NCBI GenBank assembly: GCA_024641505.1
Contig: JAHECY010000006.1
Location: 1,512 to 65,511, forward strand
Length of the DNA: 64,000 nucleotides
DNA from: Gammaproteobacteria bacterium
GTDB taxonomy: Bacteria; Pseudomonadota; Gammaproteobacteria; SG8-11
Direction of reading: 5' to 3'
The notes under the pieces are model-generated. The model saw only the letters and a program-made list of their open reading frames with translations, did no database searches and had not been told where the DNA came from. The position numbers and the translations under genes were made by a program. Below, piece by piece: positions 6,857 through 37,140 of the stretch; the stretch's first letter is position 1, and each line of letters begins with the position of its first letter.

Positions 6857-7917
6857 GGCGCCCTCCGTGACGGCCACCATTGCACCAACACCAGCCACAA
6901 CAATGCCGCGCCCAGGGGCCAGGGATACAGCGCCACCTTGAGGTAGTGCGCGGTGCCGTCGATGGACCGGCGCTCGGCGGCTTGAATCGCCCGCATCGCG
7001 GCATTCAGGGAATCGGCGCTGTCGGCCCAGTAGAAACCGCCGCCGCCGGCCGCGGCAATCACCTTCAACAGTCCGATATTCGCCGGTTCATAGAGCAAAC
7101 CGGCGGCACGCGCTTCGTCCGCCGCGATGCTGGTGGCGCCGATGCCGATGGTGTGCAGGCGGTAGCCCTGCCGGCGCAGGAAATCCGCCACGGCACGGGG
7201 ATCGACATCGCGCCGCGGTCGGTTGACATCCGTCAGCAACACCAGCACCGGCTTTTCCGCGACCGACGGCGGTACTTGGCGCGCCAGCTGGCGCAGCGCA
7301 TAAAGCAGGGCGTTGCCCGGATCGCTGTTGCGACCGGTGAGCACCGCCGGTTCCAGGCGCTGCACCATGGTACGCAATAAATTGTAATCCGCGGTCAGCG
7401 GCACCACGCTATACGCTTGTTCGGAAAAGGCGATCAAGCCGATACGATTTCCGTCCAGGCCGTCGATAAAATGCGTCATCACGCTTTTCAGCAGGGTCAT
7501 GCGGTCCACGCGTTGCCCCGCCATTTGATAGTCACGCAACACCATGCTGATTGACGTATCAAGCAGAAACATCACATCGCGATAGGTCGCGGGCATCGGC
7601 AGTTGCGCACCCGGCACATAAGGATAGGCCAACGCGCCGTGCAGCGTCGCGATCAACACCGCATAACTCAACCAGCGCCGTACCACCGCGCCGGCACCGG
7701 AGCGTTGCGCGACCGGGTCACCGGCATGGCGCAGCAGCGGCCATTGGGGATGGCGGTAACGCGCGCTGCCCAATACTCCGGTCACCTCACGCAACGAAAC
7801 CAATTGGCGTCGCTGCGCCAGCCACGCCAGCACCAGCAACCATGCCCCGCCCGCCCATAACCAGCCGGGATGCTGAAACTGGATAAGCGCCAGCAAAGCA
7901 CCGAGCTGCTGCGCCAT
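6853..7917 (-). CDS. VWA domain-containing membrane protein (BatA-like)
   Basis: The MAQQLGALLALIQ... start gives ATG/TAA overlap with the upstream gene at 7917. Two N-terminal TM helices and a VWA MIDAS-like motif (FLLDTSISM). Confidence 0.65.
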   Translation of the reverse strand: MAQQLGALLALIQFQHPGWLWAGGAWLLVLAWLAQRRQLVSLREVTGVLGSARYRHPQWPLLRHAGDPVAQRSGAGAVVRRWLSYAVLIATLHGALAYPYVPGAQLPMPATYRDVMFLLDTSISMVLRDYQMAGQRVDRMTLLKSVMTHFIDGLDGNRIGLIAFSEQAYSVVPLTADYNLLRTMVQRLEPAVLTGRNSDPGNALLYALRQLARQVPPSVAEKPVLVLLTDVNRPRRDVDPRAVADFLRRQGYRLHTIGIGATSIAADEARAAGLLYEPANIGLLKVIAAAGGGGFYWADSADSLNAAMRAIQAAERRSIDGTAHYLKVALYPWPLGAALLWLVLVQWWPSRRAP

Positions 7918-8354
7918 TAGCGTGATTCCCCGCGCCGGGCGAGCCAGGCAAGTGCGTCGATCGCGGCCTGGCGACACTGGTCCGGCGACGGCGCTTGCGC
8001 GGCGAAGCAATAGTGTTGCAGGCGCATGAGAAATTGCTGCCAGTCCGGTTGGTGTCGCGCGCTGAATGCCACGTCTGACAATTGTGGTTGCGCAAAACCT
8101 TCGCGCAGGCAAAGCACGATACGCCGACATGCCTGACGCGCGTCCCGTTGCTGCGACAGCGACGCGCGCAACACGCGCCGCAACTTGCGCCGCGCCCGCG
8201 GCCGCGGTCGATTACCGAGCACTACGACCGCGGCGACCAATATCACTAATAACGCCATCAACGCCCCGTACCAGCCACCGGCAAGCGCCTCGGTGGCCGG
8301 TGCCGGCGCCACGATATCCACCCAGGTCCCGCCCATTATTACGCTATCGCCCAT
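7917..8354 (-). CDS. Small membrane protein of bat operon (DUF4381-like)
   Basis: ORF between the DUF58 and VWA genes. Single TM (YGALMALLVILVAAVVVLG) followed by a basic stretch, in the position of the DUF4381 gene in Bat operons. Start codon uncertain. Confidence 0.4.
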   Translation of the reverse strand: MGDSVIMGGTWVDIVAPAPATEALAGGWYGALMALLVILVAAVVVLGNRPRPRARRKLRRVLRASLSQQRDARQACRRIVLCLREGFAQPQLSDVAFSARHQPDWQQFLMRLQHYCFAAQAPSPDQCRQAAIDALAWLARRGESR

Positions 8355-9339
8355 GGCCGGGCTCCAGACATGTGCTAATGTCATCGGTGGTGCTGCAGGT
8401 GCGCAGCGCAACGCCGGCTTGTTTGCAACAAGCTTGCAGCACCCATTGCCGTTGCTGAAACAGTTCCTGGTACCGTTGTCGCTGCGTGTGATCCCGGGCA
8501 TCGATGCGCAACTCCTGCGCTACGTCGCCGGTATCGATCAGATAGGCACCGGTCGCGGGCAGACGCTGCTCCACCGGATCGAGTATCTGCTGCGCACGTA
8601 CCGTATGTCGGGCGGCAAGTTGCTGTAACAGCGGCGCGGCAAGTTGCGCGTCGAACGCGGCAAAGTCGCTGAGCAGTAACACGAAACTGCCGCCCGGCAT
8701 CCGATGCGCCAGGTGTCCCAGGATCGAATGCAGATGCGCGTGCGGCGCATCGAAGGCCAGCGGCGTACACGGCGCGATCAGCTGCGCCAGCAAGCCCTGG
8801 GTCAACTGCGCGCCGGCGGCCGGGGCATGCCACTGCGACTCCTGATTCAAAACGCAACCACCTACCGCCAACCCCAGGGACCGCGCGTATTGCAAATAGC
8901 ACACCGCGATTCGCGCCGCAAGCGTGACCTTGAGTTGCCGACGCGTGGCGAAGCGCATGGTGGGACCACGGTCCACCACCAGATACACCTGGGGTCGCCG
9001 CTCCTCCATGAACACCTTGGTGTACAGGGCACCGCTGCGCGCATACAAGCGCCAGTTCAACAAGCGTGGCTCGTCACCAGGTTGGTAGGGCCGATGTTCT
9101 TCAAATTCAAAGCCGCGACCTCGATAAATCGAGGCATGTTCGCCCGTCAAGGCGTGGCTGCTGTGCTGTTGAAAACTGAACAGGGACTCCGGCAACTGTT
9201 GGGTCACAAGCGCCAGACGTTGCAGTTCAGCGTCGTCCAGCAAGGGCCTATGCGTCGGCGCGGGCTTGCCGCCAAAACGCCGGCGATACCGGGTCCACCG
9301 CTCCAGTATCCTATGCGCCGGAGTCATGATGATGTTCAC
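8344..9339 (-). CDS. DUF58 family protein (VWA-like, MoxR partner)
   Basis: 331-aa ORF overlapping the moxR stop by 4 nt (ATGA). Canonical position downstream of MoxR. Conserved DUF58-type stretch (RGRGFEFEEHRPYQPGDEPRLLNWRLYARSGALYTKVF). Confidence 0.65.
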   Translation of the reverse strand: MNIIMTPAHRILERWTRYRRRFGGKPAPTHRPLLDDAELQRLALVTQQLPESLFSFQQHSSHALTGEHASIYRGRGFEFEEHRPYQPGDEPRLLNWRLYARSGALYTKVFMEERRPQVYLVVDRGPTMRFATRRQLKVTLAARIAVCYLQYARSLGLAVGGCVLNQESQWHAPAAGAQLTQGLLAQLIAPCTPLAFDAPHAHLHSILGHLAHRMPGGSFVLLLSDFAAFDAQLAAPLLQQLAARHTVRAQQILDPVEQRLPATGAYLIDTGDVAQELRIDARDHTQRQRYQELFQQRQWVLQACCKQAGVALRTCSTTDDISTCLEPGHGR

Positions 9340-10325
9340 GGCACGGGGATCGCATCCACCAGTCCTTTGATAAGATCATTCGCCGACAGTTGTTTGGCTT
9401 TGGCGGTAAAGCTGAGAATCATCCGGTGACGCAGCACATCGGCGGCGACATCGATGACATCATCGGGAATTACATAGGCACGGCCCTGTAAATAGGCATG
9501 GGCACTGGCGGCTCGGGCCAAGGCGAGCGTGGCTCGGGGCGAAGCACCGTAGTGGATATGGTCGCGCCAGTCGGGTAACCATTTTTCCGGATGCCGCGTG
9601 GCATTAACCAGGCTCACCATATAGCGTTTCACGCTCTCTTCGAGGTGAATCTCCGCGACTTCACGCCGGGCGGCCAACACGGTGGCCGGTTGCAGTTGGC
9701 TCTCCACCGCTTGTTGGTCCGCGCCGAAGTGTAAACGCCGGTCGCGTTCCAGAATTTGAAATTCCTCTTCTTCGCTGGGATAGTCGATCACCACATGCAG
9801 TAGAAAGCGATCCAGTTGCGCTTCCGGCAAGGGATAGGTACCCGCTTGCTCCAGGGGATTTTGCGTCGCCATCACCACGAACAGGTCCGGTAATCGATGG
9901 CTTTTCCCGGCGATGGTCACCTGCTGTTCCTCCATGGCTTCCAGCAATGCCGATTGCACTTTGGGCGGCGCACGGTTGATTTCGTCGGCGAGGATGATTT
10001 CCTTGAATAATGGGCCCTCGACAAAACGAAAATCCCCGGTCTTGGGATCGAAGACCTCACTGCCTGTAATGTCCGCGGGCATCAGATCCGGTGTGAACTG
10101 GATACGCTGAAATCCCGCGTGCACGCCGCTGGCTACCGCCTTTACCGCCGTGGTCTTGGCCAGGCCCGGCGCGCTCTCCAACAGTAAATGCCCGCCGGTC
10201 AGCAGGCCGATCATGATCCGATCCAGCAGCTGGTGTTGCCCGACAATGATACTTTCCAGATGACGGCGTAAAGTGAGAAATTCCGGTTGCGTGTGCATGG
10301 CTATGGCTCTGGGGATCAAGAACAT
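9336..10325 (-). CDS. MoxR-family AAA+ ATPase
   Basis: LLLESAPGLAKTT Walker A and the typical MoxR body (ILADEINRAPPKVQSALLEAMEEQQVTIAG). 329 aa. Confidence 0.85.
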   Translation of the reverse strand: MFLIPRAIAMHTQPEFLTLRRHLESIIVGQHQLLDRIMIGLLTGGHLLLESAPGLAKTTAVKAVASGVHAGFQRIQFTPDLMPADITGSEVFDPKTGDFRFVEGPLFKEIILADEINRAPPKVQSALLEAMEEQQVTIAGKSHRLPDLFVVMATQNPLEQAGTYPLPEAQLDRFLLHVVIDYPSEEEEFQILERDRRLHFGADQQAVESQLQPATVLAARREVAEIHLEESVKRYMVSLVNATRHPEKWLPDWRDHIHYGASPRATLALARAASAHAYLQGRAYVIPDDVIDVAADVLRHRMILSFTAKAKQLSANDLIKGLVDAIPVP

Positions 10326-10960: not shown

Positions 10961-11251
10961 CAAGCGTTTGCTGCGCACCAATAAGAGACATGGTGCGCAA
11001 TACCTGCCCAGGGCACTTCCATTTAAACTGATTCTAACTATTCAATCGCGGTTTTATCGTTTTTTCCTACATCGACACCCAATCTTATCATTGCTCGTTA
11101 TTAACTCCCCGAGGTGGATAAATCCCCTCCTGAAAGTCTATGTAATTACCGTATTTCAGGGCTTCTCGACCCTTACTATTCTGGTAAACTCTCCAGGTCT
11201 TCGAGCGGTACCCAGATCGGTCACCGTTACGTTTTCCACAGGGGGGAAACC

Positions 11252-12817
11252 ATGGACGTCTTGACCACCCACGCTTCGACATCGGGCGACGCCAATCCAT
11301 TGATAAAATTGCGCGCCTGGCAGCGCTTCCATGTGCGCTTGACGGGACTCTATGGGGGAACCGTGCTGGTCTGCCTGTTGCTGATCGGCTTTATCTTTTA
11401 TGCCTCGGGCGTGGACGCCGAAATTCAAGGTCTGCAAAAACGCCTGTTAGCCATGGTCAGCAGCCTGGCCGCCTCGGTGGACGGTGACAAAGTCAGCGCC
11501 ATTCCCCTGGACAGCGGCGAAAATTCTTCTTTTCACCGCGCCATCAAACAACGGTTTCAGGAAGTGGCTGATCTCGACCCTGACGTGGCGACTATTTACA
11601 TCCTGCGGCCTACCAACGAACCGACCAAATTGCGGTTCCTGGTGGATTACGTCAAAGACGGCGAGGAAGGCAAACCCGGCGAGGCTTACGATGCCACCGA
11701 CATACCGGTGATGCTCAAAGGTTTCGCCGCCCCCGCCGTGGAGAACGAGCCCTATACGGATCAGTTCGGCACCACCCTTTCCGGATACGCGCCGATCTAT
11801 AGCAGCACCGGTAAAAGCGTCGGCATCGTCGGCGCTGATGTTCATGTCTCCCGCCTCACCATTTTGGAGCATCAGGTGCGCAACGTGGTGGTGCTGGTGT
11901 TTGGCATTGCGGTACTTCTGATCAGTCTGGTTTCGTTGGCCGTGGCGCACAGCGTGCGCACGCCGCTGAGTAAAATCATCAATGCCGCAGCCGCCGTTGC
12001 CCGCGGCGATTACACGACCCGTATCGATCTCAAGCGTAACGATGAATTCGGCTTGATGAGTCAACACTTCAATAATATGGTGCATGGTCTCAAGGACCGG
12101 GAATTCATCCGGGAAACCTTCGGCCGCTATATGAGTCATGACCTGGCAACCGCCGTACTCAGCACCGAGAAGATGCCGCAACTGGGTGGCGAGGAACGGG
12201 TGGTCACGGTGCTGTTCAGCGATCTGCGGGGCTACTCCACCATGGCGGAACGCCTGCCACCGGTGGCGGTCGTGGAAATGCTCAATGAATATCTTGGTGA
12301 AATGAACGTACTGATCGACAAGTATCACGGGTGCGTGATCGAATTTCTGGGAGATGCCATCCTCGCCGTGTTCGGCGCGCCCTCCTATCAACCGGATCAC
12401 TCGGAAAACGCCGTGCGCTGCGCGATGGAAATGCGCGTGCGTCTGGCGGAACTGAATCAGCGCTGGAGCCAATCGGGATTGGCGCGTTACTGGAAGGGCA
12501 AAGCCCTGGAAAATTGGGGGCTGCGCATCGGCATCCACGCCGGCCCGGTGGTGGCGGGCAATATCGGCAGCCCGACACGCATGAAATACACCGTGATCGG
12601 CGATACCGTTAATGTCGCCGCGCGTCTGGAAAACTTGAACAAGACACTGAAAACCGATGTGCTGATCAGCGATGAAGTGTACGATCATCTGCCCGATGCG
12701 CTGGTGGGCCAGATGAAGGATCAGGGCCAGCACCAGGTGAAAGGGCGGGAACAATCCGTCAGCGTTTACTCCCTGGAAGCCTTGCATGTCGCCAAGGTGG
12801 TTCGATTTTCGAAATAG
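11252..12817 (+). CDS. Membrane-bound adenylate/guanylate cyclase with periplasmic sensor region, HAMP domain and class III cyclase domain
   Basis: Start set at the internal ATG at 11252, preceded by GGGGGGAAAC. Two TM helices flank a roughly 170-aa extracytoplasmic region. HAMP (RIDLKRNDEFGLMSQHFNNMVHGLKD). Cyclase core VVTVLFSDLRGYS...IEFLGDAILAVFGAP...GIHAGPVVAGNIGS...YTVIGDTVNVAARLE. Confidence 0.8.
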   Translation: MDVLTTHASTSGDANPLIKLRAWQRFHVRLTGLYGGTVLVCLLLIGFIFYASGVDAEIQGLQKRLLAMVSSLAASVDGDKVSAIPLDSGENSSFHRAIKQRFQEVADLDPDVATIYILRPTNEPTKLRFLVDYVKDGEEGKPGEAYDATDIPVMLKGFAAPAVENEPYTDQFGTTLSGYAPIYSSTGKSVGIVGADVHVSRLTILEHQVRNVVVLVFGIAVLLISLVSLAVAHSVRTPLSKIINAAAAVARGDYTTRIDLKRNDEFGLMSQHFNNMVHGLKDREFIRETFGRYMSHDLATAVLSTEKMPQLGGEERVVTVLFSDLRGYSTMAERLPPVAVVEMLNEYLGEMNVLIDKYHGCVIEFLGDAILAVFGAPSYQPDHSENAVRCAMEMRVRLAELNQRWSQSGLARYWKGKALENWGLRIGIHAGPVVAGNIGSPTRMKYTVIGDTVNVAARLENLNKTLKTDVLISDEVYDHLPDALVGQMKDQGQHQVKGREQSVSVYSLEALHVAKVVRFSK

Positions 12818-13045: not shown

Positions 13046-13253
13046 ACATCACATTTTCAACATCATGCACCCTATTTGTTCAAAATATTCAGCCATTTAT
13101 AAAACCTTACATATGTTCTCCCTGTAAAGAATTATTACAAATAGACGACAAATGCACTAAGGATTTTAACTGAGTTGTTTACTTTGTTTTACACCTAATA
13201 CAGTGACAACGACTCATTTGCCTTGAATATAACCCCCAAGAGGAGATCGACAC

Positions 13254-13664
13254 ATGCCATTGTTTACCTGGAGTAATGAATACAGCGTGGGCGTAGGTAC
13301 CATGGACAGCCACCACAAAACCCTGTTCGACATCATGAACAAGCTTCATGACGCCATGAAGCAGGGTCAGGCGGAAGACCGCATCGCCGCCACCATCCGC
13401 GAACTGGTGGACTACACTGTATATCACTTCGGTGAAGAAGAAAAAATCATGGAGCGTATCAACTATGCCGGTATCGGCGCGCAAAAACGCGAACATGTCG
13501 TATTTGTGGACAAAATGAACGAGTATAAAGCCAAGGCGGACAAGGGTCAGGCTATCTTCACCGTGGCGGAAGTCGCGGCGACCTCTGTGACATGGCTGCG
13601 GGAACACATTCTGGGCATGGACAAGAAATACGAAGAAACTATGAAGGCGCACGGGATCAAATGA
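13254..13664 (+). CDS. Bacteriohemerythrin (hemerythrin-like O2/iron-binding domain protein)
   Basis: 136 aa. MPLFTWSNEYSVGVGTMDSHHKTLFDIMN...HF.EEE...H motifs typical of single-domain bacterial hemerythrins. Good RBS (agaggag). Confidence 0.8.
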   Translation: MPLFTWSNEYSVGVGTMDSHHKTLFDIMNKLHDAMKQGQAEDRIAATIRELVDYTVYHFGEEEKIMERINYAGIGAQKREHVVFVDKMNEYKAKADKGQAIFTVAEVAATSVTWLREHILGMDKKYEETMKAHGIK

Positions 13665-13682
13665 TCTCTGGTCACTGACCTG

Positions 13683-13722
13683 ACCTCGGGGGGTGCGCAT
13701 CGCACCCCCCTTTTTTTTCCCC
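13683..13722 (+). terminator. Rho-independent terminator after hemerythrin gene
   Basis: ggggggtgcgcatcgcacccccc hairpin followed by a T-run (tttttttt). Confidence 0.6.
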
Positions 13723-14000
13723 CTCGGCAGTACGCAATCCCATTGCAGGTGCGCAGCGTCCCCGCCATTGGTGCTCCCCCCTCGATATTGCGGAATCACA
13801 TTTGGGATGCGCATCGCACCGCTTTTGTTGCGGCCCCTCGTTAGTGCGGAATCACATTCGGGGTGTGCATCGCCCACCCTTTAGTGCGCGCCCTCGACAG
13901 TGCGCACCTTGGGGGCGTATGACGCACCGATCTTTATCTGGTTTTGTCACCATCGAGAGCACATGAACGAAAAGCAAAAGCCGGTGCGTCATACGCACCC
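13683..14000. repeat. Cluster of about 5 degenerate REP-like palindromes (GGTGCG..CGCACC variants)
   Basis: ggtgcgcatcgcacc, gatgcgcatcgcacc, gtgtgcatcgcccacc, ggcgtatgacgcacc and ggtgcgtcatacgcaccctac lie in the convergent intergenic region. Confidence 0.6.
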
Positions 14001-15046
14001 TACGGGGGCAGAATGCTTTCCAGACCGGTAATATGGGTGGTATCGGCGTCACGAGCGAAAGAGGATTCGACAAGCCCGGTAATATCGTTCGTTGTTGACA
14101 ATCCGAAGTGCTGCATGAGATCGGCTATTTTCTGGATATCTGCGTCACGCGGCGCGTAGTTGTCGAAATCGATGCGGTTTTTGGGCGTGTTCAGGGTGTA
14201 CATCACCAGATCGTAGGGCTGACCCCAGTACTTGGAGGCAATGCGTCCGGCTTCCTCCGGATTCTGCTTGGCCCATTGCAGGGCCCGGGCGGCCGCGGTC
14301 ACCATATACTTCACCACCTCCGGCTCATCCTTGATCATGCGGTTTTTGATGATCGTGAGATTGCTGAAAAATCCGGGCCACACTTCCTCGGCATATTTAA
14401 ACTTCTTTGACTCTCCGGACATCAACGTCTTAGCGGCAAACGGTTCGCCGACATAGTACGCATCCAGCGCGCCGGAAGACAATGCCGCGGCCATATCCGG
14501 TGGATTCATTTCCACGACGTTGACCTGACCGGTGAGATTGGCTTTTTCCAATTGCTCCATGATACTCAGATTATGGCCTGAAAACCGCATGGGCACGGCG
14601 ACGGTCTTGCCAATCAAGTCATTCCAGGTATTGCCGTTGAGATCCTTGCGTACCACCAGGGTACTCTCATTGCGGTTACCGACGAGTATGATCTTGACGT
14701 CTTCGCCCTGCTGTCGCAGCACAACGGACAAAGGCGCGATGATAAACGCCGCGTCGATCTGATTATTGCGCAAAGACTCGCCCATTTCCGCGAACGAAGC
14801 GAATTTCAGGGCTTTAAAACGAATGCCTTTGGTTTCCTTGCTCACCTTGTCCAGAATTGGCGCCGCCAGATTGCTGAACACGGGCATATAGCCCATGGTA
14901 ATCACTTTGCGGTCGCTGTCTTCGTTATTGACGTATTCATGCATGAAGGTGATGAAAATCAACCATGCGGTAATCGCCGCCGACAGCTTCCATACCATGG
15001 GCATTTGAGATATGGGTCTAAAATTGTCCCGTTGATTGCTATCCAT
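14000..15046 (-). CDS. ABC transporter substrate-binding protein, NitT/TauT (nitrate/sulfonate/bicarbonate, NMT1-like) family
   Basis: 348 aa with an N-terminal TM/signal (WKLSAAITAWLIFITF) and an NMT1/SsuA-like body. Alternative start at 15004. Confidence 0.75.
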   Translation of the reverse strand: MDSNQRDNFRPISQMPMVWKLSAAITAWLIFITFMHEYVNNEDSDRKVITMGYMPVFSNLAAPILDKVSKETKGIRFKALKFASFAEMGESLRNNQIDAAFIIAPLSVVLRQQGEDVKIILVGNRNESTLVVRKDLNGNTWNDLIGKTVAVPMRFSGHNLSIMEQLEKANLTGQVNVVEMNPPDMAAALSSGALDAYYVGEPFAAKTLMSGESKKFKYAEEVWPGFFSNLTIIKNRMIKDEPEVVKYMVTAAARALQWAKQNPEEAGRIASKYWGQPYDLVMYTLNTPKNRIDFDNYAPRDADIQKIADLMQHFGLSTTNDITGLVESSFARDADTTHITGLESILPP

Positions 15047-15460
15047 CTATATCGCCACATTTCGCTCGTAAATCGTTTTCTTGCACTACCCACCGGTATA
15101 GCTTCAGAACCGAGCCTGGTCCTGTCATCGGCAGATCCATTATTCCCCGCAAATGTTACCGCCACCGGCAGCTTGCGATACGCATTTCACCACCGGACTT
15201 GCCGGATTGCGCGCCGGAGTTTTTTTAATTATCGAAATCGTGGTGCGTTGTACGCCGTCCCCATTCAGCCAATGATGGGTAATGGAGATCAACAGCAGCC
15301 ATGTCGTGAGCACAACCAGCAACATGTAGCCCAAATGCTGCTGGGTTCGAGGTTGGAAGCTTGCCCGATGCTCATAATCCGGGCGTGGCTTGAATTGCGC
15401 TTTACCGGTCACCTGATTCACCGTACCTAAATCGGTACGGATACGACCAAAGCCTCTGCA

Positions 15461-16255
15461 TCAAACCGCATAACTGACCCCGAGTTTTAAAAATATATCG
15501 TCACGAATTTCCGCCAGTTCCTTGTTGGTCTCGAGATTGCGTGGCCGTTCAAACTTCATTTCATATACCGCTTTTACCTTGGTGGGTCGATCGCCCATCA
15601 CTATGATGCGATCTGCCATAATCACCGCGTCTTCGATAAAATGCGTGACCATGATCATGGTTTTACCGATATAGCTGTGGATATTGACCACTTCCTCACG
15701 GATGCGCAATTGCGTCAGATAGTCCAGGCCGGTAAACGGTTCGTCCATAAATAACATGTCGGGATTAACCACCAGCGCCCGGGCCAATTCGGCGCGCCGC
15801 TGCATACCACCGGAAAGTTGATTCGGGTAGTGATTTTCAAAGCCAGTCAATTCCACCATATCAAGAAATTCGAATACCATATGGCGTTTTTCCTGTTCAT
15901 CACTGATATGGCGCACTCCCAATTCCACGTTTTGCCACACGGTCATCCAGGGCAGCAGGCCATTGTGCTGAAACACAAAAATATGGTCGGCGCTGGGTCC
16001 TTTTACCTCTTTGCCATCGATCAGTACCCGACCGGAACTAGGTGTATCGAAACCGGCGATGATACGCAGCATGGAAGACTTGCCGCAACCGGAAGCGCCA
16101 AGCACACACACCATTTCCCCGTCCTGAAATTCCAGATTCACGTTATCGAGAACCCGCATTATTTCCCCGGGTCGTGCCGCATCTCCAGGCTGGCGTTTCA
16201 CCGACCGGCGGTTAACGTATTCCTTGGTGAGATTTTCTATTTTTACGTGCCCCAT
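15461..16255 (-). CDS. ABC transporter ATP-binding protein (NitT/TauT family)
   Basis: Walker A GASGCGKSS, signature LSGGMQRRAELARAL, Walker B LFMDEPFTGLD. Start chosen at MGHVKIENLTKEY (16255). The ORF track extends to 16297, overlapping the permease stop. Confidence 0.8.
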   Translation of the reverse strand: MGHVKIENLTKEYVNRRSVKRQPGDAARPGEIMRVLDNVNLEFQDGEMVCVLGASGCGKSSMLRIIAGFDTPSSGRVLIDGKEVKGPSADHIFVFQHNGLLPWMTVWQNVELGVRHISDEQEKRHMVFEFLDMVELTGFENHYPNQLSGGMQRRAELARALVVNPDMLFMDEPFTGLDYLTQLRIREEVVNIHSYIGKTMIMVTHFIEDAVIMADRIIVMGDRPTKVKAVYEMKFERPRNLETNKELAEIRDDIFLKLGVSYAV

Positions 16256-16275
16256 AATCCACTGCCTTGTATGCG

Positions 16276-17052
16276 CTATTTTTTTGCTTTCGCCCATTTC
16301 AGATAGTCCACGGAAGTCACCCGGATCATTATGATATCCAGCAACAAGCCGATGAGACCGATTGTAATCATGCCCACCATGACGTTATCCATGCGCAGGG
16401 CATTGCGCGCGTCGACAATGAGATAACCCAGCCCCGACTGTACCGCAATCATTTCCGCCGCCACCACCACCAGCCAGGCAATAGCCACGGTGAGACGTAT
16501 CGCGGTCACTACTTCGGGAATGATCGCCGGCACCACGATCTTGGTAATCACTTCGATACGCGAAAAATTGAAGTTGGCCGCCACCTGAAAATACATCGGG
16601 TTGATGGATTCCACCGCCACCGCGGTGGCCACCACCAGCGGAAAGAAGCTGGCGAGAAATATCAGAAATATCGCCGGTTGATCACCGATGCCGAACCAAA
16701 GCATGGCCAAGGGAATCCAGGCCAGCGGCGAAATCGGGCGCAGAAACTGGATCAGCGGGTTGATCAGGCTTTTTGCCACGGTCATGCGACCCAGCAGTAT
16801 GCCCAAAGGTATGCCCAGCATCACCGCCAGGTAAAACCCGACCGTTACCCGGTATAAGCTGGCCACGGAATGTTTGAGCAGAGAGCTGTCCTGCGCCAGA
16901 TCCAGAGCGCTTTGCATCACCACCATGGGCCCTGGAAATACCTGATGACTCCAGTCGCTATAGCGTGTGATGCCGTCCCACAGCAAAAATATCACCACGA
17001 ACGAAAGCACGGGAAACAGTATGAACGAACGCTTTAATGCTTTGCGCATCAT
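16276..17052 (-). CDS. ABC transporter permease (NitT/TauT family)
   Basis: 258-aa polytopic membrane protein with a BPD-transporter-type permease body. Lies 18 nt downstream of the ParA-like gene. Confidence 0.8.
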   Translation of the reverse strand: MMRKALKRSFILFPVLSFVVIFLLWDGITRYSDWSHQVFPGPMVVMQSALDLAQDSSLLKHSVASLYRVTVGFYLAVMLGIPLGILLGRMTVAKSLINPLIQFLRPISPLAWIPLAMLWFGIGDQPAIFLIFLASFFPLVVATAVAVESINPMYFQVAANFNFSRIEVITKIVVPAIIPEVVTAIRLTVAIAWLVVVAAEMIAVQSGLGYLIVDARNALRMDNVMVGMITIGLIGLLLDIIMIRVTSVDYLKWAKAKK

Positions 17053-17069: not shown

Positions 17070-18050
17070 CTACAACGCCAGAATTTCTTTAGCCAGGGAA
17101 AAATACTGCAATCCGGCACGGCTGCTTTTGTTGTAGTACATAGTGGGCGAGAGCACGATCTGGGACTGAGGTACATTGTCATCCTTTTCGATGATGGTCT
17201 GAAACAGACTACCGGTGAAGGCGCGATTCATCTTGGTATAGATGACTTTTGATGCCATATTGTCACGATCAAACATCGTCACCAGGATATGGGAGCGTAT
17301 ATCATGCTGGGACTTTTCCCGGATTAAATTAATCATGCTCTGAATATGATTGATACCGTTCATGGAAAGAAATTCCGCCTGAGTGCATATCGCCGCCATA
17401 TCCGAAGCCAACAGGGCGTTGAGAGTAAAAAAATCGCCGGACGGCGGCGTATCAATGAGCACGTAGTCGAAATACGGCTTCACCGGCGCCAGCATGTCGC
17501 GCAGCATATACTGAAAGTTCTCACTATTTTGTTGTTTGTTCAGCAATGTCATCTTGGTATTGGACGGTAACAGCCAGAAATAAAGACCGGTTTTCACGAT
17601 GTAGTCCGCCAGGGAATTTTCGGGATCGCTGCTGGCATCGAAAAACGAACGCGCATCACGGTAGTTCAGCAGCAGGCTGAGATTGGCTTGGATATCGAAA
17701 TCAATGACCAATACCCGTTTCTTCATCAATACCAGTGAGGTCGCCAGGTTGAGGCAGGTAGTGGTCTTGGCCACACCGCCCTTCTGGTTGCAAATTGTAA
17801 TTACTTTACAAGACCGGGCTGAATCTGACATATCCATGCCATCGATGATTACCGGCTTTTGCGCCTTGCGCACGAAGTCGGGGTTCGACGCGGCATCCGG
17901 CGCTGGCAATGATAACAATGGTTGCCGAATGGAAAACACATGGCCGCAACGACAACAGCGTGCCCGGGAAACGCGTTTTTCCAATAAATGCTCGTCGATC
18001 CGGTAACGTGTCGCGCACTCGTCACAAGTAACAATCATATGTCCATCCAA
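17070..18050 (-). CDS. ParA/MinD-family ATPase with N-terminal MJ0042-type zinc ribbon
   Basis: The N-terminus MIVTCDECATRYRIDEHLLEKRVSRARCCRCGHVF has CxxC...CxxC. It is followed by a deviant Walker A (KVITICNQKGGVAKTTTCLNLA) and a ParA/MinD body. Confidence 0.75.
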   Translation of the reverse strand: MDGHMIVTCDECATRYRIDEHLLEKRVSRARCCRCGHVFSIRQPLLSLPAPDAASNPDFVRKAQKPVIIDGMDMSDSARSCKVITICNQKGGVAKTTTCLNLATSLVLMKKRVLVIDFDIQANLSLLLNYRDARSFFDASSDPENSLADYIVKTGLYFWLLPSNTKMTLLNKQQNSENFQYMLRDMLAPVKPYFDYVLIDTPPSGDFFTLNALLASDMAAICTQAEFLSMNGINHIQSMINLIREKSQHDIRSHILVTMFDRDNMASKVIYTKMNRAFTGSLFQTIIEKDDNVPQSQIVLSPTMYYNKSSRAGLQYFSLAKEILAL

Positions 18051-18145: not shown

Positions 18146-19225
18146 TCAGCCTGCGGTTACCACCCGCTCCTCGCCATTGCGCTCGCCCAATACACCGGCG
18201 ATTTTTTCACTAAGTTTTAGATCACTGACCACGAAATCGACCACACCTTCTTCGATCGCGCACTGCGCCAGATTTGGATACACGCAGGTTTCGGTATTCT
18301 GTGCAATGGTGGTACCGTGCTTTTTCTTAATTTCCGAAAAACCCATTTGGCCGTCATTGCCCACGCCAGTGAGCAACACACCCACCGCATGCTGATCGAA
18401 AACGCTGGCTGCGGACATGAATAAGGCATCCAACGGCTTGTGTCGCCCCGGCCCCTTTTTCAAGCACGGCTCATTGGCTTCGTTGAGCGCAATTATCATC
18501 GGTTCCTTATAGGAACACACATAGCAGACCCCCGCTTCCAACACCATGTCTTCCTGTGCGGCTTCGACTTTCCATTGCGTATATTCGTTGAATTGCTTGA
18601 CGAAGTTAGGGAGAATTTTTGGCTCGATTTCCTGCACCACCACCGCCGCCGCCGGAAAATCCGGTGACAACTCCGACATAATACGGATTATGGTATTGGG
18701 CCCGCCGAGAGTGGTACCCAGGGTCAGCACGCCTTCCAGTGTCTGATAGCCGTAGCGTTCCGCCAAATTGGCGCGCAGATCGACTTTTTGCAGCTTTACC
18801 CTGCGTACATTGTTAATATTTTCCGCGGCGGCGATCTTCACCCGGTCAATGATCTGCTGCCCCTGGCTGTGAATGTCGGTGGAAATGGCGCCGGAAGGCT
18901 TGGGCAGAAAATCGACGACGCCCAACCGCAATGCTTCAAAAGTGATATCACCGTGGAAAAACAGTGAACTGAGCATAACGATCGGCACCGGCGACTCTAT
19001 CATAATATGACGAATCGCCTTGATGCCGTCCATCACCGGCATATCAACATCCAGGGTCACCACATGCGGTTTCAGAGCTTTGATTTTTTCCAGAGCATCG
19101 CGACCGTTACGCGCGCTGCCGACTACTTCGATCTCGGCGTCCTGTTCCAGGATATCGCGCAACGCTTTCACCATGAAGGAAGCGTCATCCACGATCAACA
19201 CTTTTATCTTATCACTCATAGTCAT
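18146..19225 (-). CDS. CheB-like protein (REC + methylesterase fold) with apparently degenerate catalytic triad
   Basis: REC domain (KVLIVDDASFM...VTLDVDMPVMDG). The esterase-domain segment LGTTLGGP aligns with E. coli IGASTGG (Ser164 to Thr). VVQEIEP aligns with ITQHMPP (His190 to Glu). GVGNDG keeps Asp286. Confidence 0.8.
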   Translation of the reverse strand: MTMSDKIKVLIVDDASFMVKALRDILEQDAEIEVVGSARNGRDALEKIKALKPHVVTLDVDMPVMDGIKAIRHIMIESPVPIVMLSSLFFHGDITFEALRLGVVDFLPKPSGAISTDIHSQGQQIIDRVKIAAAENINNVRRVKLQKVDLRANLAERYGYQTLEGVLTLGTTLGGPNTIIRIMSELSPDFPAAAVVVQEIEPKILPNFVKQFNEYTQWKVEAAQEDMVLEAGVCYVCSYKEPMIIALNEANEPCLKKGPGRHKPLDALFMSAASVFDQHAVGVLLTGVGNDGQMGFSEIKKKHGTTIAQNTETCVYPNLAQCAIEEGVVDFVVSDLKLSEKIAGVLGERNGEERVVTAG

Positions 19226-19257: not shown

Positions 19258-22200
19258 TCAATGCACATTATCGGGCGGTGGCGCAGGCGGCAACGCCTGT
19301 TGGCGTTTCGGCCCGCGGCGAATACGGGTGCGTAGTTGCTGCGCTTGATCCCGGTGCATTTTCGCCTGTCGACCAGAAGTCATTTTTACGAGTTCATGGG
19401 CGTCGAGAATCAGGGAAATACGGCCGTCACCAACGATGGTAGCGCCGGAAAATCCGCTTTTCTCCTGCACATAGTCCGCCAGGGGTTTGATTACCACTTC
19501 TTCCTGACCGATCAATTCATCCACCACGAAACCGGTACGCGCGCCCTCGGTGTTGACAATCACCACAAATACCTTGTCTGTGTTTTCATCCGCCTTGATA
19601 CTGAACAGCTTGGAGAGATGAAAAATCGGCAGGGCATGACCGCGCAGATGAATAACTTCGACCCCCTCGACTTTTGACGTCTCGTGGCGGAAAATTCGCA
19701 CCGTTTCATCGACATTGGCCAGAGGAATGGTAAACAAGTCGCGACCGACGCGGATCATTAAGGCATGAATAATCGCCAGCGTCAGGGGAATCTTCAAGCG
19801 CATCTGGGTACGCACGCCGGGTTTGGAATCGATTTCGAGAATGCCGTTGAGTTTTTCGATATTGCGCTTGACGACATCCATGCCAACACCGCGACCCGAG
19901 GTACCGGTGACCTTTTCCGCGGTAGAAAATCCGGGCATCAGGATCAATTGCGTCAGGTCCCGGGCATTCATGCGTTCCAGTTCTTCCGGGGTATATAACC
20001 CTTTTTGCTGCGCCTTGAGCTTGATGCGTTCCGGGCTGATACCGCGGCCATCATCGGTGACTTCGATGACGATATTATTACTTTCCTGGTAGGCATTCAG
20101 GGTGAGCGTACCCGCTTCCGGCTTGCCGGCCTTGCGCCGTTCTTCACGGTTCTCCAGGCCATGATCCACGGCGTTGCGAATGATGTGAATCAACGGATCC
20201 GACAATTCCTCGACGATCATTTTGTCCAATTCCGTATCTTCGCCTTGAATCACCAGCTCCACCTTCTTGTCGGAGGTGTGCGTCAGATCGCGCACCAGGC
20301 GCGGGTAACGGTTGAAGATCTGCGAAATCGGCAGCATGCGCATCTTCATCACTCCTTCCTGGAGTTCATTGGAAGTGCGGCCCAGGGAGGCAATCGCCTC
20401 TCCAAGTCGGTAGGTAAACGTACGCAGCATTTTAATTTCTTTTTGATCGATACCGGCCACGTCCTTCAGATAATTCTGCAATACCCGCATTTCATTGGAC
20501 AGCTGGAAAAAATAGGATCGGTCCACCACCAACTCGCCGACCAGATTCATCAACGAGTCGATTTTTTCCGCATCGACCCGCATGCTTTTCTTGATCTTTT
20601 TTTCCATCGTGTCCAGAACCCGACGCTTGTCGCCGGTACCTGGGGCGGACTCAGGACGAGGCGCAGTCGGAGCTTGACCGTTACCCTTAGTCTGCTGCGT
20701 TGGCGTTTTTGCCTTGGCTTGGGCCCCGGCCACCATTTGGTCGTATACCTGGTTCAGGGTTTCCTGCTTGTTGGCGCTCGCCTCTTTTTCCATTACCGAA
20801 TCGAGAGCACCGCTGAGTTGGTTGTAAAGTTGGTTCTCAGCAACCGCCGGGGCTGCCTTCCTGCCCGTGGCCGGCGCCCGAGCCGGTACCGGTACCGTTT
20901 CAATGATTTCACCTTTGATGGCTGTGGTCGGTACATCACGCAGCTGTGGAAACATGCCATCCAGTCGCGCCAGATATTTGTTCATGAATTCCAGTGGTGC
21001 TTTCCCGCCACCGGCCCAGGCGGAACTTGCCTGCTCGATGCGCGTACGCCACTCTTCATACAACGATGCCAAATCCTGGTAACCCATGTAGTTGGCGGCG
21101 GACCAAAGACGCCCGATGGTATCGTCACACCACTGCAGATGCTGCACCTTGTCCGGCTCCTTTTGCAGCTCATTGACGGATTTCCGCAGAATACTCGCTT
21201 GCTCCCGCAAATGATGCATAAAAATGCCGAACAATTCCTGATCGTGCTCCTCCTCGTAGGAAGAACCCACCGTCTCCGTAATCGCATCCACGGATTCCAG
21301 GCTCGCTGCAGGGATCGCGGGTGATGCTGCCACCGAAAGACCGGTACTGCCATCGATGCGGTGACTGATTTTCATCACCAGATCGTCAATCGCCGACAAT
21401 TCCTGTTCGTGGATATTCAATTCATTGACCAGTTGCACGATACGATCCCGGGCATCGATCAACAAGTCGATAGTGCCGGTGCTCGAAGACATTTTACCCT
21501 GGCGTAACAGATCCAACAGATCTTCGAGGCGATGTGACAGTCGGGAAATTTTCGCCAGTCCGGTAATTTGCGAGCCACCCTTGATGTTGTGGACCGGCCG
21601 GAAAACGTCGTTAAGGAATTCAAGATTCTGGGGGTCGTCGCTCAATTGCAGTAATATGGTTTCGATTTCATCCAGGTGGTCGCCGGCTTCGATTATAAAA
21701 TCCTTGAGCAGACCCATATTGATTTCCATTTCCGGCTCCGGCTTCAGAATCACGCGTGGCTCGGGTAACTCATCAGCAGGTACCGCCGTTGACGCAGACG
21801 CCGCATCAGCCGCGGTATCGGGTTCCGCAATATCAACCCCTCCACCCACACCCATATTCATGAATATGTTCATGACATCGTCGGTGACATCCGACACAGC
21901 CGGCATCAAACCGTCTTGGTCGGCGGACACTGACGGTGCCGGAGATTCCCTACCGTTCGCGTCCATGGCTGGCTGATGAGGGGCCGTTTGCCAGGTATCC
22001 AGATCGGGAAACAATGTGGTGACACGCCGTAAATATTCGTGCATGAATTCCAGATCCGGCACTTCCCCACGCGCCACATCCTGACGTGAATCACTCAAAA
22101 TACCACGCCATTCCCCATACATGTCCACCAGATCCTGGTAACCCATATAGTTGGCCGCAGACGACAGACCCTCGACCACGGCTCCACACCATTCTAAATG

Positions 22201-22767
22201 CTGATCCAGATCGGGTTCGCTATCCTGCTGTGCCACCGCCTGCCGCAAGGTATGCACTTGTTCCCGCAGATGACTCATGAAAATCCCGAACAACTCCTGG
22301 TCGTGCTCTTCCTGATAGGTCTGCGCATCGGGCATAGCGGTTTCGGCCACGGTGGTCGCGGCGGCCAGCGGCGTATCGTTTTGGTCTTCAATCAGTACTG
22401 TGAGCTGATCCACCAGATCTTCGATATCAGATTGCTCTTCCTGAAACTCCTCCAGTTCCCGCACCAGACGCAAAATGCGATCGCGGGTTTCAATGAGCAA
22501 ATCGACGGTATCATTATCCGACTTCTTCTTTCCCTGACGCAAAATGTCCAGCAAATCTTCGAGTCGATGCGACAACCGCGACACTTTGTCCAAACCGGTG
22601 ATCTGAGACCCACCCTTGATGTTGTGCACCGGCCGGAAAATGTCATTGAGAGTGGTCAGATCATTCGGATCTTCCGCCAGCCTCAACAGCAGGACTTCTA
22701 TCTCATCCAGGTGTTCGCCTGCTTCGACAATAAAGTCGCCAAGTAATGCCAGGTTTATTTCACTCAT
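19258..22767 (-). CDS. cheA: CheA-family histidine kinase with two HPt domains (tandemly duplicated N-terminal module), dimerization, HATPase and CheW-like domains
   Basis: 1169 aa. HPt1 (FRPVHNIKGGSQITGLDKVSRLSHRLEDLLD) and a near-identical HPt2 (FRPVHNIKGGSQITGLAKISRLSHRLEDLLD). The H-box-less kinase core HIIRNAVDHGLE...DDGRGI...GRGVGMDVV. C-terminal CheW-like domain. Confidence 0.9.
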   Translation of the reverse strand: MSEINLALLGDFIVEAGEHLDEIEVLLLRLAEDPNDLTTLNDIFRPVHNIKGGSQITGLDKVSRLSHRLEDLLDILRQGKKKSDNDTVDLLIETRDRILRLVRELEEFQEEQSDIEDLVDQLTVLIEDQNDTPLAAATTVAETAMPDAQTYQEEHDQELFGIFMSHLREQVHTLRQAVAQQDSEPDLDQHLEWCGAVVEGLSSAANYMGYQDLVDMYGEWRGILSDSRQDVARGEVPDLEFMHEYLRRVTTLFPDLDTWQTAPHQPAMDANGRESPAPSVSADQDGLMPAVSDVTDDVMNIFMNMGVGGGVDIAEPDTAADAASASTAVPADELPEPRVILKPEPEMEINMGLLKDFIIEAGDHLDEIETILLQLSDDPQNLEFLNDVFRPVHNIKGGSQITGLAKISRLSHRLEDLLDLLRQGKMSSSTGTIDLLIDARDRIVQLVNELNIHEQELSAIDDLVMKISHRIDGSTGLSVAASPAIPAASLESVDAITETVGSSYEEEHDQELFGIFMHHLREQASILRKSVNELQKEPDKVQHLQWCDDTIGRLWSAANYMGYQDLASLYEEWRTRIEQASSAWAGGGKAPLEFMNKYLARLDGMFPQLRDVPTTAIKGEIIETVPVPARAPATGRKAAPAVAENQLYNQLSGALDSVMEKEASANKQETLNQVYDQMVAGAQAKAKTPTQQTKGNGQAPTAPRPESAPGTGDKRRVLDTMEKKIKKSMRVDAEKIDSLMNLVGELVVDRSYFFQLSNEMRVLQNYLKDVAGIDQKEIKMLRTFTYRLGEAIASLGRTSNELQEGVMKMRMLPISQIFNRYPRLVRDLTHTSDKKVELVIQGEDTELDKMIVEELSDPLIHIIRNAVDHGLENREERRKAGKPEAGTLTLNAYQESNNIVIEVTDDGRGISPERIKLKAQQKGLYTPEELERMNARDLTQLILMPGFSTAEKVTGTSGRGVGMDVVKRNIEKLNGILEIDSKPGVRTQMRLKIPLTLAIIHALMIRVGRDLFTIPLANVDETVRIFRHETSKVEGVEVIHLRGHALPIFHLSKLFSIKADENTDKVFVVIVNTEGARTGFVVDELIGQEEVVIKPLADYVQEKSGFSGATIVGDGRISLILDAHELVKMTSGRQAKMHRDQAQQLRTRIRRGPKRQQALPPAPPPDNVH

Positions 22768-22788: not shown

Positions 22789-23139
22789 TCAGCTTCCCAC
22801 TAAGGCGAGAATCTGTTCGGATTTGTGTTTATTCACCAGACCAATGGCGCCGATGCGTTCCACTTCCCCGCGGTATTTATCCTCATCCATATTGGAGAGA
22901 ATCAGGATGCGCGCCTTGGCGTCTCGAGCCATGATTTCCTTAGCCGCGGTAATCCCATCCATGCCCCGCATGGTGATATCCATGGTGACCAGATCCGGGC
23001 GCAGACGCTCATACATTTCCAGTGCATCGGCGCCATTGGCCGCCTCCCCTACCACCTCATGGCCAGCATCACGCAAGGTTTTGACGATCACCTTGCGCAT
23101 CATGGTCGAGTCTTCCACCACCAGTATTCGCTTGCTCAT
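22789..23139 (-). CDS. cheY: CheY-like single-domain response regulator
   Basis: 116 aa. ILVVEDSTMMR...DLVTMDITMRGMDG...K motif set of a REC domain. Confidence 0.85.
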   Translation of the reverse strand: MSKRILVVEDSTMMRKVIVKTLRDAGHEVVGEAANGADALEMYERLRPDLVTMDITMRGMDGITAAKEIMARDAKARILILSNMDEDKYRGEVERIGAIGLVNKHKSEQILALVGS

Positions 23140-31205: not shown

Positions 31206-31270
31206 CCGTGCCGAACATCCGGCCCGTCCTTTGCATACATAACGCAGGATCAACAACTTATTTTACAATA

Positions 31271-33793: not shown

Positions 33794-33985
33794 ATAGACC
33801 TCGAGAAATCCGCAAATAACACACAGAAGTATCCATCAAAATATCGTACCGGTGATGAATTACTTAAGCACGGAAATATCCGGTATTTCTCCTGCCTCCA
33901 CGGCGACCATACACGCGTATTCCGCAATTTGTGTCCGGCTGAAAAACTGACTTATATTTTGGGAAATTATGCCGAAAAACTGTCC

Positions 33986-35617: not shown

Positions 35618-35623
35618 GGCGCC

Positions 35624-37000: not shown

Positions 37001-37097
37001 GTGACCTTATCCTACACCCGCGAGTGTCCATTCTGGTCACCTGACCATTTGTATCAGCGCTTTCCGTTATATGGATATTACGAATACTGCTCTCCCC

Positions 37098-37140
37098 CGG
37101 GTTCAGCACTTGCTGCAGTGCTTGGCTAAGTTTTTGTTTT
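37098..37140 (+). terminator. Probable rho-independent terminator downstream of pilR
   Basis: agcacttgctgcagtgct hairpin followed by tggctaagtttttgtttt. Confidence 0.5.

Follow-up and report, generated by a model that had tools for sequence, protein, structure and literature searches.

Why a complete solute importer should be encoded at the end of a chemosensory operon is the question raised by a stretch of 64,000 nucleotides (hereafter, the window) from a gammaproteobacterium of the GTDB lineage SG8-11 (GenBank assembly GCA_024641505.1, contig JAHECY010000006.1, positions 1,512 to 65,511 of the forward strand). An 11-gene operon lies on the minus strand of the window and encodes, in order, a response regulator, a CheB-like protein, a methyl-accepting chemotaxis protein (MCP), CheW, CheY, CheA, a second CheB-like protein (CheB2), a zinc-ribbon ParA and the permease, ATPase and substrate-binding protein (SBP) of an ATP-binding cassette (ABC) importer. 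Comparison with related loci shows that the 3' end of a Che-type operon with apparently dead CheB domains and no CheR nearby is formed here by a complete importer of the NitT/TauT family, a conserved module, and that the two have been inherited together and have passed as one unit between two phyla. All coordinates below are positions in the window unless a locus number (L001 and so on, for the related loci) is given. The three transporter genes are:

16276-17052, minus strand: ABC permease of the NitT/TauT family (258 aa; Pfam BPD_transp_1, E 8e-21)
15461-16297, minus strand, likely start ATG at 16255: ABC ATPase (278 aa; Pfam ABC_tran, E 2.5e-31)
14000-15046, minus strand: NMT1/SsuA-type SBP (348 aa; Pfam NMT1_2, E 1e-21, and NMT1, E 1e-16)

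The original prediction, made from the DNA letters of the window, had placed a permease, an ATPase and an NMT1-like binding protein after a ParA-like gene on the same strand. All three genes are borne out by their open reading frames (ORFs) and Pfam matches. The ATG at 16255 is the likely start of the ATPase gene because the family models align from residue 15-18. With this later start the ATPase is of about 264 aa and consists of ABC_tran alone, no extra regulatory domain being detected with Pfam or NCBIfam. The label 'NitT/TauT-type' proved right for the family, from Pfam and the best NCBIfam matches, but not for any subfamily, since all matches lie below the curated cut-offs. The permease reached 182 bits with SaoP, 149.8 with NtrB (cut-off 209), 142 with TauC (cut-off 342) and 123 with SsuC; the ATPase 208.9 with ntrCD (cut-off 291.8), 205 with SaoA and 192 with a TauB-type model; the SBP 111.8 with SsuA_fam (cut-off 163.5) and 57.9 with the taurine SBP model (cut-off 304). 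None of the curated NCBIfam cut-offs for nitrate, taurine and sulfonate transporters (NrtABC, TauABC, SsuABC) was reached by any of the three subunits. By these models the importer is a member of the NitT/TauT family (TC 3.A.1.16/17) that falls outside every characterised subfamily. Its SBP homologs carry the Joint Genome Institute label 'NitT/TauT family transport system substrate-binding protein'. The matches with SaoP and SaoA, models of the Sao organometallic transporter (bioRxiv 10.1101/2022.07.06.499078), are likewise below cut-off and do not yield a ligand.

Linkage between the transporter and the che genes was examined from both sides. On the SBP side, 29 orthologs were aligned, one genome was kept per species, and 308 genomes were found to encode a relative; the best 80 of these 308 were taken with 10-kb flanks and the window proteins were mapped onto them by tblastn. 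On the che side, an alignment of CheB2 was compared with metagenome contigs and the closest 80 loci were inspected. The periplasmic sensor of the MCP had been tried as anchor for this reverse synteny test and was discarded in favour of CheB2, its homologs being orphan MCPs in unrelated contexts. Together the two scans cover about 160 related loci in two phyla, and the pairing was present in most of them. A CheB2 ortholog and/or the zinc-ribbon ParA lay on the same strand and immediately upstream of the permease-ATPase-SBP genes in 53 of the 62 genomes with at least 7.5 kb of upstream sequence. Conversely, the three transporter genes followed the CheB2 ortholog on the same strand in 29 of the 32 metagenomic loci with at least 4.5 kb of downstream sequence, and were convergent in one more. 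The linked share is thus about 85-90% of the inspected loci. The transporter belongs with the che genes, as had been predicted from this single locus, and orthologous loci in which the two are adjacent are the rule.

The full 11-gene order of the window was recovered in L090, L093, L111, L115 and L128. The carriers belong to the Gammaproteobacteria and the Desulfobacterota, and include Competibacteraceae, Thiohalomonadaceae, Chromatiales, Methylococcaceae, Ca. Venteria, Desulfosarcina widdelii, Desulfatitalea, Ca. Electrothrix and many metagenome-assembled genomes of Desulfobacterales. By protein similarity, the closest relatives of the window organism are gammaproteobacterial metagenome-assembled genomes. 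Adjacency was kept through several rearrangements. The ParA gene, present in most related loci, has been lost in Competibacteraceae; in one of these loci, Competibacter L005, the gene calls for CheB2 (4327-5385) and for the permease (5372-6229) share 14 nt. Many Desulfobacterota have genes for a small HAMP protein and a TauE permease inserted after ParA, ahead of the ABC permease gene. L063 and L139 show the block inverted, and in L063 the che genes are next door in inverted orientation. Identities between the phyla are about 55% for the SBP, 65% for CheW and 67% for the permease; because these values are high, they appear to show that the block has moved horizontally between phyla. A conserved functional linkage of the transporter and the che genes is, in our judgement, highly probable.

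The layout of the operon is consistent with this linkage. CheB2 and ParA are separated by 95 nt and ParA and permease by 17 nt, and the permease and ATPase genes overlap by 22 nt (a 20-nt gap with the later start). The very short gaps that had been described were therefore found at the ParA-permease and permease-ATPase junctions, but not between ATPase and SBP, where the gap is of 414 nt (15047-15460). In about 113 orthologous loci the median spacing at the latter junction is about -20 nt, and the widest gap measures 158 nt. The 414-nt spacer is the relic of a partial duplication, because a 93-codon ORF within it matches the N-terminus of the SBP profile; this decayed copy, which spans the transmembrane helix and the first strand region, explains the length of the spacer against the overlap of about 20 nt that is the median elsewhere. 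Spacer and decayed copy are also present on an independent, 100% identical contig (L001). The decayed copy and the probable end of the operon are:

15140-15421, minus strand: 93-codon ORF, decayed copy of the SBP N-terminus (hmmsearch, 23.9 bits, SBP profile positions 6-70)
13983-13999, minus strand: terminator-like hairpin immediately past the stop codon of the SBP gene, probably where the operon ends (weak; the scan is not above shuffled expectation)

No terminator-like site was found in any operon junction with the consensus promoter/terminator scan, which gave counts of 16 vs 14.5 +/- 4.4 and 22 vs 16.4 +/- 4.3 in shuffled sequence and was used for the absence of sites in junctions. The CheB2-ParA and ATPase-SBP spacers are not unusually stable when folded against shuffled sequences (z -1.4 and +0.6, respectively). 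An internal terminator between 17052 and 17070, which would have spoken against a common transcript, does not fit in a gap of 17 nt. Co-transcription of the transporter with the che genes is likely from this arrangement. The next gene 5' of the operon is divergent and encodes a LysM protein (28701-31025).

The chemosensory part of the operon comprises the following genes:

27586-28284, minus strand: response regulator, first gene of the operon (receiver at residues 116-227, Response_reg E 9e-25; 115-aa N-terminal region with no assigned domain)
26486-27589, minus strand: CheB-like protein 1 (CheB1; Pfam Response_reg and CheB_methylest, degenerate triad)
23813-26272, minus strand: MCP of 819 aa (two transmembrane segments, periplasmic sensor of about 285 aa, HAMP and MCPsignal; Pfam)
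23180-23722, minus strand: CheW (Pfam CheW, E 4e-35; orthologs in related loci 58-70% identical)
22789-23139, minus strand: CheY-type single-domain response regulator (Response_reg E 1e-23)
19258-22767, minus strand: CheA of 1169 aa (two Hpt stretches, dimerisation domain, HATPase_c and CheW domain; Pfam and NCBIfam CheA models)
18146-19225, minus strand: CheB2 (intact receiver and degenerate methylesterase-like domain; Pfam)
17070-18050, minus strand, likely start ATG at 18038: zinc-ribbon ParA/MinD ATPase (AAA_31 E 7e-39, CbiA, MipZ, Zn_ribbon_4)

Orthologs of the response regulator (33-51% identity) occupy the same position in L090, L093, L098, L101, L111, L115 and L128. No C-terminal receiver was found on CheA by Pfam. 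The zinc ribbon of ParA is N-terminal and of the MJ0042 type (TIGR02098, 33.7 bits vs a cut-off of 20.9), and its deviant Walker A motif, read from the sequence as KGGVAKT, follows the KGGxxK[ST] pattern of the ParA/MinD family. CheB2 is the gene that most constantly adjoins the transporter. Catalytic residues of the CheB-like proteins were taken from an alignment with E. coli K-12 CheB (Ser164, His190, Asp286), which included the PATAN(DUF4388)-REC-CheB-like protein whose gene is added in Desulfobacterota loci:

CheB2: S164 replaced by Thr, H190 by Glu, D286 kept
CheB1: S164 replaced by Ala, H190 by Tyr, D286 kept
PATAN-REC-CheB: S164 replaced by Gly, H190 by Ser, D286 by Gly

The Glu at the H190 position is invariant in 14 CheB2 orthologs. 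In all CheB-like proteins of such operons, those encoded in L056 (4482-5939) and L067 (12875-14263) included, the catalytic Ser and His are missing. The receiver aspartates of the CheB-like proteins are intact. Both CheB-like proteins of the window fall just under the CheB subfamily cut-off (CheB1, 279 bits vs 293). They thus appear to be phosphorylatable pseudo-enzymes. No CheR was found among the Pfam-scanned operon genes and their neighbours or among the annotated genes of the Competibacter loci; it may be encoded elsewhere in the genome. Because the CheB triads are degenerate and no CheR is nearby, the pathway appears to work without methylation-based adaptation. The core of a chemosensory system (MCP, CheW, CheA and CheY) is complete by Pfam, and what is missing from canonical chemotaxis is an intact CheB triad and CheR. 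With NCBIfam, generic CheA, CheW and CheB matches alone were obtained for the formal Che class.

What the importer might do for such a system was considered from its binding protein. In the AlphaFold2 model of the SBP (pLDDT 89), a long N-terminal helix (residues 17-40) precedes the standard two-lobe binding-protein fold. The SBP is predicted to be held in the inner membrane by this conserved transmembrane helix, and from the charged residues flanking the helix and the positive-inside rule the binding domain (about residues 45-348) is read as periplasmic. The helix motif W-L-x-x-I-S-x-L-H-x-x-L-N is kept in all genomic contexts examined, and the anchor holds invariant polar residues. Positions conserved at 90% or more number 110 of 258 in the permease (101 che-linked orthologs), 107 of 278 in the ATPase and 121 of 348 in the SBP (90 che-linked orthologs). 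With Foldseek, the SBP matched 3UN6, SsuA, TauA, NrtA and CmpA. The top match by both sequence (E 1e-30) and structure (template modelling (TM) score 0.86, target-normalised) is 3UN6, a zinc-bound protein of unknown function, so a ligand could not be assigned from solved structures. By analogy with relatives, a small anion may be suggested as the solute. Nitrate, a sulfonate or a bicarbonate-like anion, named in the original prediction, are candidates, no curated subfamily cut-off having been reached by the importer.

Loci that depart from the common arrangement also bear on the role of the transporter. It was found without che genes in 9 of the 62 genomes. In the three annotated contexts of this kind, signalling genes are present each time: a multi-PAS histidine kinase, two receiver (REC) proteins and a sigma-54 regulator in L040, a dCache-SpoIIE phosphatase in L028, and a cNMP-binding sigma-54-type regulator in L069. 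The transporter of L040 and that of L064 are preceded by genes for a histidine kinase and a sigma-54 regulator. In two Desulfobacterota loci, L052 (9557-13962) and L079 (8088-10996), the SBP has stayed in a che cluster and the locus encodes neither permease nor ATPase; the orphan SBP ORF of L052 runs 4 nt into the start of the gene for a dCache-PAS hybrid histidine kinase. Such orphans favour a sensing role of the SBP, or a partner encoded elsewhere.

Transport and sensing are probably coupled in this system, with the direction of the coupling lying between an input and an output role of the importer. We lean, tentatively and at somewhat less than an even chance, towards the input role, in which the tethered SBP and its importer form a constant ligand-sensing arm that does not depend on the fold of the MCP periplasmic domain. 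This co-sensor role is favoured because the linkage is conserved, because adjacency survives rearrangement and because junctions are short or overlapping. It is also favoured because the transporter family stands beside signalling genes in other contexts, with the SBP retained when the transporter is absent (L052, L079), and because the SBP is unusually conserved across two phyla and has an anchor with invariant polar residues. The importer would then be a dedicated signalling partner of the Che core and not a housekeeping nutrient system. The membrane-tethered SBP would capture a small solute, and its occupancy, or the flux through the importer, would be passed on to the receptor-kinase complex, either at the membrane or in the cytoplasm. 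This route would run alongside the interchangeable periplasmic sensor of the MCP and not through it, and signals particular to each species would enter by that sensor. The output would be set as CheA hands phosphate to CheY, to the response regulator with the N-terminal extension and to both REC-pseudo-CheBs; in this genome it is plausibly surface or type IV pilus behaviour. Precedents for co-sensing are MBP-Tar, LsrB-Tsr, PstS-CtpL, TorT-TorS, PstSCAB-PhoR and BceAB-BceS.

Several observations weigh against this role. The MCP sensor is not conserved together with the SBP, so that classical docking is unlikely to be general. In che-less orthologs, the number of conserved positions that are changed is 0 in the SBP, 1 in the ATPase and 4 in the permease, and no che-specific interaction surface is visible in this comparison, which includes 6-9 non-che sequences from few lineages and has low power. 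The inspected loci are related by descent and transfer, and the counts are not independent events. Four che clusters of this type (L155, L160, L165, L166) have no transporter. Finally, the position of the importer at the 3' end of the operon resembles that of output genes in other non-motility Che systems, for example wspR.

This last likeness, which is established knowledge for such systems, speaks for the main rival reading, the reverse direction: the transporter would be the regulated output, and the Che core would switch solute import post-translationally via a phosphorylated receiver protein. The candidate receiver is the REC-pseudo-CheB encoded just upstream, with CheY as the alternative, and export through TauE might be switched likewise. 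An invariant 3' module in company with an input domain that varies is what a conserved output usually looks like. CheB2, with an intact receiver and a dead esterase domain, adjoins the transporter, as far as the 14-nt gene overlap in L005. The kinase and sigma-54 regulator encoded ahead of the transporter in L040 and L064 fit this direction as well, as regulators often precede their target operons. Against it, the ATPase has no extra regulatory domain, the orphan SBPs of L052 and L079 are hard to explain, and Che-type control of an ABC importer is without precedent in the literature searched. We regard control of import by the Che core as possible and somewhat doubtful.

Both directions can be drawn together in a wider proposal, of a new chemosensory class built round a solute transporter, in which either the phosphorelay gates the importer via a pseudo-CheB or the importer feeds its flux into a methylation-free array. 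This could be so, and is put forward as a speculative possibility. The permease of the HAMP-TauE pair may then be gated likewise, and the CheB domains, no longer catalytic, would have taken on a new use in binding or regulation.

A different route for the signal had been proposed in the original prediction: the periplasmic sensor of the MCP would recognise the transported ligand, directly or through the binding protein. In the latter case the loaded SBP would dock on the sensor in the manner of MBP-Tar or TorT-TorS. The helical sensor of about 290 aa that it described is present (about residues 43-327). Pfam found two 4HB_MCP_1 stretches and a weak CHASE3 match on it, and no HBM or NIT match. 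Its AlphaFold2 model is all-helical (pLDDT 93), and the top match in the PDB is the HBM domain of McpS (2YFA; E 2e-4, TM scores 0.48 and 0.63), followed by PilJ (7ZJR) and TorS (3I9Y). PilJ is the fifth structural match (TM scores 0.33-0.39) and TorS a moderate fold match (0.41-0.52). The domain assignment that had been called for is therefore HBM-like rather than NIT. This apparently two-module helical architecture, with TorS, which docks TorT, among its structural neighbours, is in keeping with recognition of a loaded SBP in this genome. So are the recurrence of the sensor type in a subset of related operons (L012, L018, L021, L026, L032, L050, L089, L092, L095, L096, L115) and the tethering of the SBP, which places it close to the receptor.

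As a general mechanism, however, docking on the sensor did not stand up to comparison. Among 24 complete orthologous MCPs, 12 have a dCache_1 sensor, 11 a 4HB-type sensor (4 TarH, 3 CHASE3) and 2 a Cache_3-Cache_2 sensor, and 1 has a CZB domain; the HAMP-linker and signalling domains of these MCPs remain 41-67% identical. The sensor is thus replaced by dCache_1, by a single 4HB/TarH or by Cache_3-Cache_2 while the SBP barely changes, and joint conservation of receptor sensor and SBP, as in MBP-Tar, was not observed across the 24 MCPs. Because the sensor varies and the transporter is extremely constrained, conserved docking of the SBP on an interchangeable sensor is unlikely as a general mechanism. 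Moreover, the nearest homologs of the window sensor (37-50% identity) belong to stand-alone MCPs, in whose surroundings neither che genes nor a NitT/TauT transporter are encoded. Recognition of the transported ligand by the MCP sensor is accordingly rated as improbable. One of the stand-alone MCPs (L086 6778-12016, a Colwellia-type contig; sensor 37% identical) has its gene right behind those of a NIT-domain histidine kinase and a NarL-type regulator, which form a pair that senses nitrate/nitrite; this position may be coincidental.

Transporter and che genes might also be expressed together simply by being needed under the same condition, with no information exchanged. No che-specific residues are detectable on the transporter subunits, and each part occurs without the other, the transporter in 9 of the 62 genomes and the che cluster in the loci named above. 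This account sits poorly with an adjacency that persists across two phyla despite several rearrangements, with the signalling genes found beside the transporter family in each annotated non-che context, and with the SBP-only remnants retained in che clusters; we think co-expression alone an unlikely explanation. Chance adjacency, or hitch-hiking on one recently spread island, would agree with the horizontal movement indicated by the high between-phylum identities, but is hardly credible for proteins diverged to 50-70% identity, in hosts of many families, repeatedly rearranged and still about 85-90% linked.

The co-sensor role was then compared with known systems. Binding-protein chemoreception has been reviewed (PMC8050422) for MBP-Tar, RBP/GBP-Trg, DppA-Tap and LsrB-Tsr in E. 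coli and PstS-CtpL in P. aeruginosa. As in the MBP-Tar class, an importer SBP and a chemosensory pathway would respond to the same solute. In that class, the SBP genes are unlinked to the che genes, the SBPs are soluble, docking takes place on a specific receptor sensor and adaptation depends on methylation by CheR/CheB. Here, in contrast, the genes are linked, the SBP is predicted to be membrane-tethered, the sensor is swapped among orthologous operons and CheR/CheB methylation appears to be absent. In TorT-TorS, to which LuxP-LuxQ is a related case, a periplasmic binding protein docks on the helical domain of a sensor kinase. TorS appears to share the stacked four-helix-bundle fold of the window MCP sensor, as a moderate match, and the orphan SBP of L052 is translationally coupled to a sensor kinase. 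The differences are that no transporter goes with TorT and that TorS belongs to the histidine kinases, not to the MCPs. In PstSCAB-PhoU-PhoR, BceAB-BceS and DctA-DcuS, a whole transporter reports substrate flux to a phosphorelay, often from linked genes. Their partners are two-component kinases, whereas a CheA/MCP array is encoded here. To our knowledge, transporters act as co-sensors for two-component kinases alone, and none that reports to a CheA/MCP array came to light in the literature searched.

In its three components and in the fold of its SBP, the importer agrees with TauABC, SsuABC, NrtABCD and CmpABCD. A subgroup of 3UN6-like SBPs has been linked to clade B carbon monoxide dehydrogenase, its ligand being unknown (PMC6344411, PMC13592312). 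Unlike in all of these, a conserved transmembrane anchor replaces the cleaved signal peptide in the present SBP. At the place of the Cys pair of 3UN6 (YCC), the family consensus reads F-I-C and the window SBP F-F-S.

ParA-like ATPases are encoded in che operons as ParC, with ParP, in Vibrio and as PpfA in Rhodobacter sphaeroides. Such ATPases are reviewed in PMC11407121. Like ParC and PpfA, the window ParA is a ParA/MinD ATPase that has a deviant Walker A motif and is encoded within a che operon, and its task is presumably to position the array; unlike them, it has an MJ0042 zinc ribbon, and no ParP-like partner was seen. Its absence from Competibacteraceae makes it dispensable for the che-transporter linkage.

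Non-motility or pilus Che systems include Wsp, Che3 of M. xanthus and Pil-Chp of P. aeruginosa, whose cluster ends with chpE, a gene for a LysE-type transporter. The window operon shares with them accessory non-Che genes at the 3' end and a CheA with more than one Hpt. Type IV pilus genes adjoin it in the window, and PATAN and PilZ genes occur in related loci. In contrast to these systems, CheA has no C-terminal receiver, no CheR is nearby and the CheBs are degenerate. The accessory is an enzyme, a regulator or a single-component exporter in Wsp, Che3 and Pil-Chp, and a full binding-protein-dependent ABC importer here.

Each element was known separately: chemoreception through binding proteins, co-sensing by transporters, and che operons that include a ParA-like gene. 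New is a Che operon with its own conserved ABC importer, apparently dead CheB domains and no CheR nearby, which points to an undescribed coupling between transport and a Che pathway. Chemosensory pathways steer flagella and pili, and few control enzymes or transcription. No published description of a che-ABC importer linkage was found in the literature searched, whose coverage excludes most subscription journals, and a che operon with an ABC importer is not mentioned in two papers on chemosensory diversity (PMC7184735, PMC10782961). Carriers live at redox interfaces (Competibacteraceae, Thiohalomonadaceae, a Beggiatoa-type bacterium, cable bacteria and Desulfobacterales). The system is open to testing in at least one carrier that is a named strain and has a complete genome, Desulfosarcina widdelii PP31 (NZ_AP021875.1, about 7.206-7.227 Mb, L056). 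It also offers a natural set of pseudo-CheB proteins for study and a functional lead for an uncharacterised NitT/TauT subfamily.

Several neighbours of the operon recur in related loci or lie close to it in the window:

13254-13664, plus strand: hemerythrin-domain gene of 136 aa, convergent with the SBP gene (Pfam Hemerythrin, E 6.5e-16)
31208-31849, plus strand: small HAMP membrane protein with two transmembrane segments (HAMP E 3.5e-14; no recognisable output domain)
31853-32608, plus strand: TauE/SafE (TSUP) anion permease, always paired with the small HAMP protein (Pfam TauE, E 4.5e-43)
33278-42385, plus strand: type IV pilus set, with a PilS-like kinase (6TM_PilS), a PilR-like sigma-54 regulator, PilB (T2SSE with MshEN) and PilC (T2SSF)

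The HAMP-TauE pair lies about 3 kb beyond the operon start in the window. In many gammaproteobacterial loci it is convergent downstream of the SBP gene, often with a PilZ gene, and it is a neighbour of the block in both phyla (e.g. L056 6961-8342, L090 16703-18008). The pilS, pilR, pilB and pilC genes are 5-14 kb from the operon start, and these neighbours hint at a link with type IV pili. Hemerythrin is a recurrent neighbour in gammaproteobacterial loci; homologs were found downstream of the SBP gene in L002, L007, L021, L026, L030, L032, L041, L090, L095-L097, L100 and L115. In the window, the hemerythrin gene is followed by a strong hairpin with a T-run (13688-13710). A minus-strand ORF of 232 aa over this region (13179-13877) was rejected as spurious, having no Pfam match and 'homologs' that are antisense to annotated hemerythrin genes. 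In four che-less loci (L040 12576-16140, L062 11276-14552, L064 and L082), genes for a hybrid-cluster protein (Prismane, 546 aa), a 4Fe-4S ferredoxin and an HD protein are convergent downstream of the transporter, and L074 has the ferredoxin and HD genes alone. The Prismane and hemerythrin neighbours give a weak hint of nitrogen-oxide chemistry; the four Prismane loci may represent one lineage.

Between the hemerythrin and SBP genes (13690-13906 and 13901-14010), 3-5 diverged copies of a 56-58-nt unit were observed, each with a short GC-rich palindrome (GGTGCGCATCGCACC-like), in an array resembling repetitive extragenic palindromic elements. Just past the hemerythrin gene, a membrane-associated protein with HAMP and class III adenylate/guanylate cyclase domains is encoded (11114-12817, plus strand). 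Further on, a BatA-like set (MoxR AAA ATPase, DUF58, VWA and VWA-TPR; 3441-10325, minus strand) has a G+C content of 61-65%, against 51-55% in the che-transporter region.

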